Shown piece by piece: positions 36,566-37,738 of a stretch of DNA of 64,000 nucleotides. Each line of letters opens with the position of its first letter. Within the stretch, counting starts at the first letter, position 1. Source of the DNA: an uncultured Deferribacteres bacterium (GTDB lineage: Bacteria > Zhuqueibacterota > Zhuqueibacteria > Zhuqueibacterales > Geothermadaptataceae); NCBI GenBank assembly GCA_964014485.1, contig CAXHAT010000012.1, positions 204 to 64,203 of the forward strand. The letters run 5' to 3'. The notes under the pieces are model-generated. The model was not told the origin of the DNA. It saw only the letters and a program-made list of their open reading frames with translations, and did not search any database. The position numbers were made by a program, and so were the translations under genes.

Positions 36566-36958
36566 ATGGCAAAATCACGTTTTGTGCGTCGCCCCCCATT
36601 AACTCCCCTGGTGATGAAGGCGACCTCGGCGAGGGCTGGCGAGAGTAAGAGCAGGGATGATCGTTCGGTCGCACGGATGCATCAACAACTTGGTAATCGC
36701 AGCGTGAGTCAATTGGCGCAGTCAGTGATCCAGCGCCTTGAAGCGGACGAAATTGAAAACGCGCCGCTTTCTCCTGAAACGGCTTCCCGGCTTTCAGCTG
36801 AAGAACTGCGGTCATCGATTATTGAAGCAGGGCGCATGCTTTCTTTGCGGCCGGGCAATACAGCTGGTTATCGCAATATCGAGCGAAACTTGTTCACGCT
36901 GCGAGCTGAGAAAGCGCGCCGCAATCTGCGAGACGCGGGCGGTGAACGAAACAGGTGA
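36566..36958 (+). CDS. Small protein carrying the cargo-leader-like motif; ends at a TGA in frame with the downstream CHAP ORF
   Basis: 130 aa. 'ARMHQQLGNRSVSQLAQSVIQR' resembles the GNRAFGQ motif of 28589 and 31950. There is no enzymatic domain of its own. Confidence 0.5.
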   Translation: MAKSRFVRRPPLTPLVMKATSARAGESKSRDDRSVARMHQQLGNRSVSQLAQSVIQRLEADEIENAPLSPETASRLSAEELRSSIIEAGRMLSLRPGNTAGYRNIERNLFTLRAEKARRNLRDAGGERNR

Positions 36959-36994
36959 AAACGGCGGCGGCGCCTTCAAAGAATAGCGCGTGAG

Positions 36995-37738
36995 TTGGTG
37001 CAATTTACACGACAACAATTGGCGACGTACCCGGGCTTGGTGCAGCAATTCGTGCAGCAACCTTCTCCCGGCGCAGAAGAGAAGATCAGAATGCTTGGGC
37101 GGGTCTCGGCGGCGGTTGCACGCGTGGAATTCTTGCTGGGAACGATTTATCACCAGGGAGGGAGGTGGGAACGGAGCTCAAATCGCGGTTTTATGGTTGA
37201 TTTTTATACCGATCGAACGCCGTGGGCGTGGTGCTCGCGATTCGCGACGACCATTCTTGCGCAAATTACCGGTCGAAGAAGCTTGCTGGCGTTTTCAGGG
37301 TATAAAATTGCGAACCCGGGAAGGTGGAACATCGACCTGGATTATGATCAGGCGCAGGGCGGCGCATTCGTGGGGATGCGCAGAAGCAGGCGGGCTTCTC
37401 CGGATCCGCGAAGTAGAAATTACAGTCCGTGGGCCGAGTTGCGCCAGACGTTGAGAAATTTTGCCAGAGGCAGAGCGCCCGGACAGACGAAGGAACAAGC
37501 CGCGCAGGCTTTTTTACAAAACCACGTCCAGCCGCAAGCGGGCGATATTTTAGTTGTCACTCGGGGAGGCAGGCGAAATTCATTTTCCGGCGGTTCTAGT
37601 CATACAGGCATGATTGAGCGTGTTGAAGGGTTTAAAATTTATACTATCGAAGGCAACACGGGGCGAGGCAGTAATCGGGTTATCGGCGGGGTTTACGATT
37701 TGACCAGCATTGTCGACGTAGGGAAATCATTTTTATAG
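36995..37738 (+). CDS. CHAP-domain (NlpC/P60-superfamily) amidase/peptidase
   Basis: The catalytic Cys context is 'PWAWCSRFATTIL', the His context is 'SSHTGMIERV', and 'YTIEGNTG' is typical of CHAP domains. It has only a TTG start and lies in the same frame as 36566..36958. Confidence 0.7.
   Translation: MVQFTRQQLATYPGLVQQFVQQPSPGAEEKIRMLGRVSAAVARVEFLLGTIYHQGGRWERSSNRGFMVDFYTDRTPWAWCSRFATTILAQITGRRSLLAFSGYKIANPGRWNIDLDYDQAQGGAFVGMRRSRRASPDPRSRNYSPWAELRQTLRNFARGRAPGQTKEQAAQAFLQNHVQPQAGDILVVTRGGRRNSFSGGSSHTGMIERVEGFKIYTIEGNTGRGSNRVIGGVYDLTSIVDVGKSFL

Follow-up and report, generated by a model that had tools for sequence, protein, structure and literature searches.

A putative CHAP-type peptidoglycan hydrolase gene in an eCIS locus is likely a young pseudogene

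Background

Cargo proteins of extracellular contractile injection systems (eCIS) start with a disordered loading sequence and end with a variable effector, in some cases with a DUF4157 domain in addition, and they are loaded by an AAA+ ATPase (bioRxiv 10.64898/2026.05.27.728243). Peptidoglycan hydrolases have been described among the toxins of these systems (PMC8213781, PMC11297309). The gene discussed here is found in the window (the whole stretch of 64,000 nucleotides that was analysed), which holds a complete eCIS (Afp/PVC-like) locus. Like known eCIS cargos and toxins (AlgoCIS Cgo1 and Cgo2, PVC Pdp1 and Pnf, and EAT1-17), it is located at the 3' side of the eCIS operon, after the eCIS_core (DUF4157) gene. 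Its organization also follows that of these cargos, with an N-terminal leader that is common to the locus and then a variable C-terminal enzymatic domain, and loading of the protein is predicted. The window copy differs from them in its two interruptions and in lacking a DUF4157 domain of its own.

The enzymatic domain resembles the CHAP hydrolases (PF05257; PlyC and LysK endolysins). It has a Pfam match and the invariant Cys, His and Glu-x-Asn residues, its top BFVD matches are phage CHAP proteins and endolysins, and some of its homologues have peptidoglycan-binding domains. The protein is predicted to have hydrolase activity, for which the peptidoglycan-binding domains of homologues are indirect support. 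It differs from these enzymes in having a helical domain of ~135 residues before the core and a conserved C-terminal helix after it. The Cys and His residues of the window protein are separated by about 120 residues, roughly twice the spacing in LysK.

By analogy only, the protein can also be likened to the T6SS Tae amidase effectors, in which a cysteine hydrolase that cleaves the cell wall is delivered by a contractile phage-tail-like machine. Tae5 is present in one of the match lists. Unlike the T6SS, an eCIS is an extracellular particle whose lumen is loaded through a leader, and no immunity gene is evident adjacent to the window gene.

The interruptions themselves are of the kind found in bacterial pseudogenes: a premature stop and a 1-nt indel, both confined to one accessory (toxin) gene whose flanking genes are intact. 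What sets the window gene apart is that it appears to be very young. It shows no further decay, and its 5' fragment keeps a good ribosome-binding site. As discussed below, positions 36566-37980 are likely to represent one recently inactivated gene: a young pseudogene whose intact form would have encoded a CHAP-type peptidoglycan hydrolase associated with the eCIS.

Results and discussion

The eCIS locus and its cargo candidates

The structural genes of the eCIS locus are all uninterrupted and tightly packed (Table 1). One of the two Baseplate_J proteins is a giant protein of 2371 aa (12815-19930), in which the only Pfam match is Baseplate_J, near the C-terminus (residues 2114-2299). A Baseplate_J paralogue of normal size (19934-21874) is encoded 3' of the giant protein.

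A leader motif, (H/M)xQxx(M/L)GNR(A/S)xxQxxQ, is common to the proteins starting at 28589, 31950 and 36566. The first of these is a cargo candidate of 1105 aa (28589-31906) with eCIS_core at residues 606-682. The second (31950-33854) is a cargo candidate of 634 aa without a Pfam or NCBIfam match. The third is encoded by the interrupted gene. Between the cargo genes (33993-36562) are genes for a tyrosinase (PF00264, E-value: 6e-41) and a DsbD_2 membrane protein, the latter with a C-terminal extension that appears cupredoxin-like by eye. Both proteins are without the cargo leader, and a copper or oxidative accessory role for them in the eCIS locus is possible.

Table 1. Positions of the eCIS genes and of the parts of the interrupted cargo gene in the window
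Feature	Position	Strand	Basis or comment
AAA+ ATPase	31-1758		
Pvc16_N	1755-2390		
Sheath	4789-6390		
Tube proteins	6455-6880, 7534-7974, 9494-10165		
gpD-like hub	10170-11303		
Spike	11300-11968		
PAAR-like	12103-12399		By eye
gp25-like	12403-12813		By eye
Two Baseplate_J proteins	12815-21874		
Tail_P2_I	22794-24758		
eCIS_core (DUF4157), 1105 aa	28589-31906		
Shine-Dalgarno-like GGGAG	36555-36559	+	6 nt 5' of the ATG; read directly
ATG start of the 5' fragment	36566-36568	+	ORF list
5' fragment, ATG ORF of 130 codons	36566-36958	+	Alignment to N-terminal regions of full-length homologues
Premature in-frame TGA (lesion 1)	36956-36958	+	Ends the 130-aa ORF
Middle fragment, in the frame of the 5' fragment	36959-37738	+	Rest of the helical domain and CHAP core
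Frameshift site (lesion 2), net 1-nt deletion in GTAGGGAAATC	37718-37728	+	tblastn and alignment
3' fragment, -1 frame	37723-37980	+	Homologue alignment and tblastn

Organization of the interrupted cargo gene

The stop codon of the upstream DsbD_2 gene (36560-36562) abuts the ATG of the cargo ORF, and so the DsbD_2 gene and the 5' fragment look translationally coupled. In the product of the 5' fragment, residues 1-28 are modelled with low confidence (pLDDT below 50); the leader motif RMHQQLGNRSVSQLAQSVIQR and the initial helices of the helical domain are also encoded here. As P0009, the fragment matches the family profile with an E-value of 4.5e-22. The initial annotation had described this fragment as an ORF with a cargo-leader-like motif that ends at the TGA. 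This is confirmed, and the motif is the one common to the three window proteins. Also correct was the report of 12 in-frame sense codons after the TGA (KRRRRLQRIARE, 36959-36994), followed in the same frame by a CHAP ORF. In the present analysis, this ORF scores above the Pfam gathering score.

After this stretch comes a TTG at 36995, and there is no stop in this frame until a TAG at 37736-37738 that is induced by the frameshift. The putative catalytic residues are encoded within the middle fragment: Cys223 at 37232-37234, His346 at 37601-37603, Glu362 at 37649-37651 and Asn364 at 37655-37657. The TTG had been considered the only start of the CHAP ORF, but there is also an in-frame GTG immediately 3' of it (36998-37000) and an in-frame ATG at 37091, from which the public gene call (P0021, 215 aa) is initiated. 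The accompanying observation on ribosome-binding sites stands: by eye, a convincing Shine-Dalgarno sequence is lacking at all three codons, in contrast to the GGGAG of the 5' ORF.

At the second lesion, the translation is ...DVGK in the upstream frame and (E)IIFIARPSL... in the -1 frame downstream. Restoration of a single base produces ...DVGKIIFIARPSL..., of which the VGKIIFIARPSL portion is identical to P0001. The deletion shifts ~83 conserved C-terminal codons to the -1 frame, where the natural stop is a TGA at 37978-37980. Arg393 (codon 37741-37743) lies in the last beta-strand, which is encoded by the 3' fragment together with the C-terminal helix (residues 419-439). Read-through of the premature TGA had been expected to give a fusion protein of ~390 aa. 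It does give 390 aa, but the TAG is not the natural end of the protein, and the reconstructed sequence indicates an ancestral protein of ~471 aa.

The premature TGA is located within a window-specific, Arg-rich insertion of ~7 residues (xKRRRRL, 36956-36979). In the structural model described below, it falls in a short loop (residues 126-132) between helices H100-125 and H133-152, in a block with pLDDT 92-96. What had been taken for a basic linker is a loop between confidently modelled helices, and there is no free linker at this position. This insertion and the C-terminal tail RRPVRRRRSRRGG (37936-37980) are Arg-rich segments that are unique to the window copy when it is compared with all aligned homologues.

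A family with a derived CHAP domain

The part of the protein downstream of the TGA matches Pfam CHAP (PF05257) with 33.9 bits (gathering score 26; E-value: 4.5e-8), a match that covers only model positions 32-81, the C-terminal half. In an exhaustive profile search, 165 representative clusters had E-values of 0.001 or lower and 52 had E-values of 1e-30 or lower. The conserved module of these proteins (profile positions ~115-453) is usually C-terminal, and the proteins are 400-2655 aa long with variable N-termini. Residues K173, G178, W222, C223, G326, D327, H346, E362, G363, N364 and R393 show no variation in an alignment of 49 sequences, in which L433 is conserved at 90% or more. By analogy with LysK, C223, H346 and E362/N364 (Glu-x-Asn) presumably form the CHAP catalytic tetrad. 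Pfam CHAP is detected in 18 of the 49 family members (E-value: 1e-3 or lower), eCIS_core is fused in six, and a peptidoglycan-binding domain (PG_binding_1 or PG_binding_3) is present in seven.

An AlphaFold2 model based on the 49-sequence alignment (pLDDT 89, pTM 0.84) consists of the low-confidence N-terminus, the helical domain (~60-195), a beta-rich catalytic core and the C-terminal helix (419-439). A first model, based on nine sequences, was too poor (pLDDT 60). Two elements that are encoded 3' of the frameshift, strand 388-393 and helix 419-439, are modelled with confidence. When the fold was compared with BFVD using Foldseek, the top matches were phage CHAP proteins (E-values: 4.4e-4 and 5.3e-4, prob 1.0, TM 0.21-0.46), and the best fold matches include endolysins in addition to phage CHAP proteins. 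A fold search of the PDB returned nothing with an E-value of 0.001 or lower for either model, the best match being PlyC (E-value: 0.39). No relatives were found in the PDB by sequence, and no family was found in NCBIfam.

The fold comparison is thus mixed: the CHAP label is considered supported, but the domain is strongly derived. A by-product of the analysis is an uncharacterised protein family composed of a helical domain, a derived CHAP domain and a C-terminal helix, with no solved structural relative. In its members, this unit is joined to an eCIS leader, an eCIS_core domain or a peptidoglycan-binding domain. As an antibacterial eCIS payload, the family is a plausible candidate.

Homologues of the cargo gene

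Eight database homologues of the read-through translation were identified (423-564 aa, 39-48% identity). All eight align as a single polypeptide, from the leader through the TGA position and the CHAP core to ~80 further C-terminal residues. When read as DNA, seven distinct homologous loci each have one uninterrupted ORF. These are from Anaerolineae (L004), Anaerolineales (L005/L013/L016/L017), Bacteroidota (L003/L006) and Microlunatus (L007), together with L014, L015 and L001/L002. In tblastn searches of the window with seven intact homologues, a frame +2 HSP continues past the TGA as far as 37720/37726, and six of the seven give another HSP, in frame +1, that covers 37723 to 37872-37935. No stop or frame shift was found at either lesion site in the homologues compared. 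At least three of the seven loci have eCIS neighbours: the Anaerolineales copy (L005/L016/L017), for example, is within an eCIS locus, and the L015 copy adjoins an eCIS_core gene. Like the window gene, homologues P0017 and P0015 are encoded beside eCIS genes.

In the collections searched there is no genome closely related to this one. The best homologue of the cargo gene is 48% identical, and the IMPDH of the window is at most 75% identical to that of any other genome. Proteins named candidate division KSB1 are the closest to this IMPDH (72-75% identity). Scans for related loci found only five genome loci and two metagenome loci, none of them close to the window organism, and these collections have no orthologues that are close enough to allow dN/dS or synteny to be tested. 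There is no intact paralogous copy within the window. The ancestral intact state is therefore deduced from distant homologues and not from a sister strain.

A further homologue, in Microlunatus sp. MAG SMAG_U99 (L008, DATDAP010000530.1, 9614-10910), is in four pieces in frames 2, 1, 2 and 3, which indicates at least three frameshifts. The L007 copy, from another Microlunatus MAG, is intact (~90% identity to P0003). The L008 copy could represent either a second independent decay in this toxin family or poor assembly.

The comparison of orthologues bears on the proposal that the two ORFs are genuine genes, one encoding a protein with only the leader and the other an independently translated CHAP enzyme, such as a lysis or particle-release factor initiated at TTG 36995, GTG 36998 or ATG 37091. 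If this were so, related loci might be expected to carry two separate genes. The outcome was the opposite, as a single fused gene is found at seven of seven loci. In many family members the conserved toxin module does start near profile position ~115-135, close to the TGA, and a few members, such as P0063 and P0045, have short leaderless N-termini. Eight of the 49 aligned family members are database fragments that were excluded from that set, which leaves room for stand-alone modules. The catalytic residues are intact in the CHAP ORF, but its frame-0 product would be without parts that are invariant in the family or modelled inside the fold, namely R393, strand 388-393 and helix 419-439, and initiation at ATG 37091 would also remove helices 133-164. 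The lack of a convincing Shine-Dalgarno sequence at the three possible starts also argues against separate translation of the enzyme. As for a role in lysis, Pfam scans detected no lysis-related domain in the neighbouring ORFs, and the downstream neighbour is a convergent, threonine-aldolase-like gene. Two genuine genes are thus considered quite unlikely.

Recurrence of the lesions across assemblies

An exact copy of the 130-aa ORF, with the TGA as its stop, occurs on six contigs from three samples (ERZ23492073, ERZ23491859 and ERZ4874515). An 81-kb ENA scaffold is 100% identical to the window across the 12.4 kb compared. The frameshifted 215-aa gene call is found on three long contigs (NCBI, Logan and ENA), which may derive from one read set. 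An exact-match search of JGI metagenomes for alternative alleles of the TGA site gave 0 matches. The other coding sequence of the window, ~55 kb, is without lesion, and this includes the 2371-aa ORF. With respect to local repeats that might explain the lesions, only short ones at chance level and a 12-nt tandem (37037-37060) were found.

It had been suggested that the stop might be a sequencing error. Extended to both lesions, this would mean that the gene is really intact and that the TGA and the missing base are artefacts of sequencing or assembly. In favour of this explanation, the second lesion lies in short homopolymers (GGG AAA / TTTTT) and is seen only on the three long contigs, which perhaps share one read set; even so, the frameshifted gene call recurs across the NCBI, Logan and ENA contigs. 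The TGA-terminated ORF is exact in the assemblies of three samples. Furthermore, two errors in 1.4 kb with none elsewhere in 64 kb are unlikely as random error. An artefact is considered very unlikely.

Two contigs from other samples, L010 (ERZ4874515, 779 bp) and L011 (ERZ23491859, 696 bp), correspond to window positions 36348-37043 with 100% identity. Both end at base 37043, which is within the 12-nt tandem (TTGGTGCAGCAA/TTCGTGCAGCAA), and L010 diverges completely from the window upstream of 36373. These contigs suggest that block 36348-37043 occurs in a second context or in a strain variant, and the ends at exactly 37043 are a hint of strain variation in the cargo gene.

Conservation of the repaired protein and the possibility of recoding

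The repaired protein has no deviations at the 44 alignment columns that are at least 80% conserved, whereas the other members deviate at a mean of 3.0 of these positions (range 0-8). This suggests that the lesions are young and the inactivation recent. Recoding predicts the same flawless pattern, with the repaired frame conserved at 44 of 44 constrained positions, and is therefore kept as a rival of low probability. Under programmed recoding, the TGA would be read through or decoded as selenocysteine and a -1 ribosomal frameshift would follow, producing a low dose of full-length toxin.

The frameshift region has the sequence A_TTT_TTA followed by the TAG stop. Although this resembles a slippery site of the U_UUU_UUA type, it is not a canonical X_XXY_YYZ heptamer, and no significant RNA structure was found after the shift site (z -0.39). 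With neither a canonical heptamer nor a downstream structure, a -1 programmed frameshift was rejected. Selenocysteine insertion and stimulated read-through were rejected as well: there is no SECIS-like or stimulatory RNA structure 3' of the TGA (z +0.86) and no Rfam match in the cargo-gene region. TGA is an ordinary terminator in the window, where it ends 14 of 39 ORFs; as long ORFs are also uninterrupted, a genome-wide reassignment of TGA was rejected. A compensating pair of frameshifts around the TGA was also discarded, since the other frames reach stops within ~10 codons (by eye). In the homologues neither site contains a stop or a shift, and to our knowledge two independent recoding events in one toxin gene are without precedent, which argues against recoding. 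The regulated read-through or recoding raised in the initial annotation is consequently regarded as extremely improbable.

Related to recoding is the idea that the gene is not simply dead. The 130-aa ORF could encode a cargo-less loading-signal protein that acts as a competitor or regulator of AAA+ loading, or read-through and slippage together could supply a microdose of toxin. These readings are compatible with the absence of changes at the 44 constrained positions and with a TGA allele that recurs in three samples, but they are judged to be very improbable. If the second were true, TGA read-through followed by -1 slippage at A_TTT_TTA-TAG would provide a deliberately tiny dose of full-length hydrolase.

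Proposed history of the cargo gene

Interpretation of the locus as a pseudogene is supported, among other observations, by the recurrence of the TGA across three samples, by the uninterrupted homologues and by the second lesion. Relative to full-length homologues both lesions are disabling, and they are seen repeatedly in assemblies. A recent nonsense mutation in an effector gene had been among the explanations first offered for the TGA. It is supported here, and the frameshift, which had gone unnoticed, strengthens it.

The likely course of events for this young pseudogene can be outlined in the following way. The ancestral gene would have encoded the leader common to the neighbouring cargos, a helical domain, a derived CHAP hydrolase with Cys, His, Glu and Asn residues, and a C-terminal strand and helix. 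The AAA+ ATPase of the locus presumably loaded the intact protein, recognised via its leader, into the eCIS tube, and the protein would have hydrolysed the peptidoglycan of target bacteria. Two mutations, the premature TGA and the 1-nt deletion, are then proposed to have broken the gene. The locus would now yield at most a leader-only peptide of 130 aa, perhaps with inactive fragments, and no active hydrolase. The 5' fragment, which has retained its good ribosome-binding site, may still be translated.

If this model is correct, the annotation of two ORFs and an unannotated 3' fragment should be replaced by a single pseudogene (36566-37980), in preference to a leader-only gene with a lysis enzyme or to a stop that serves as a recoding signal. 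The locus would then provide an example of toxin-cargo turnover within an otherwise intact eCIS of a candidate division KSB1-like bacterium.

Other features of the window

A 463-aa ORF at 39407-40798 has no Pfam match. By eye, its N-terminal half is hydrophobic and its C-terminal half is long, highly basic and rich in Ser, Arg and Lys. In this genome, with its IMPDH closest to candidate division KSB1, an Acido-Lenti-1 sRNA (RF01687) is found on the minus strand at 61315-61360, with 45 bits compared with a gathering score of 37.
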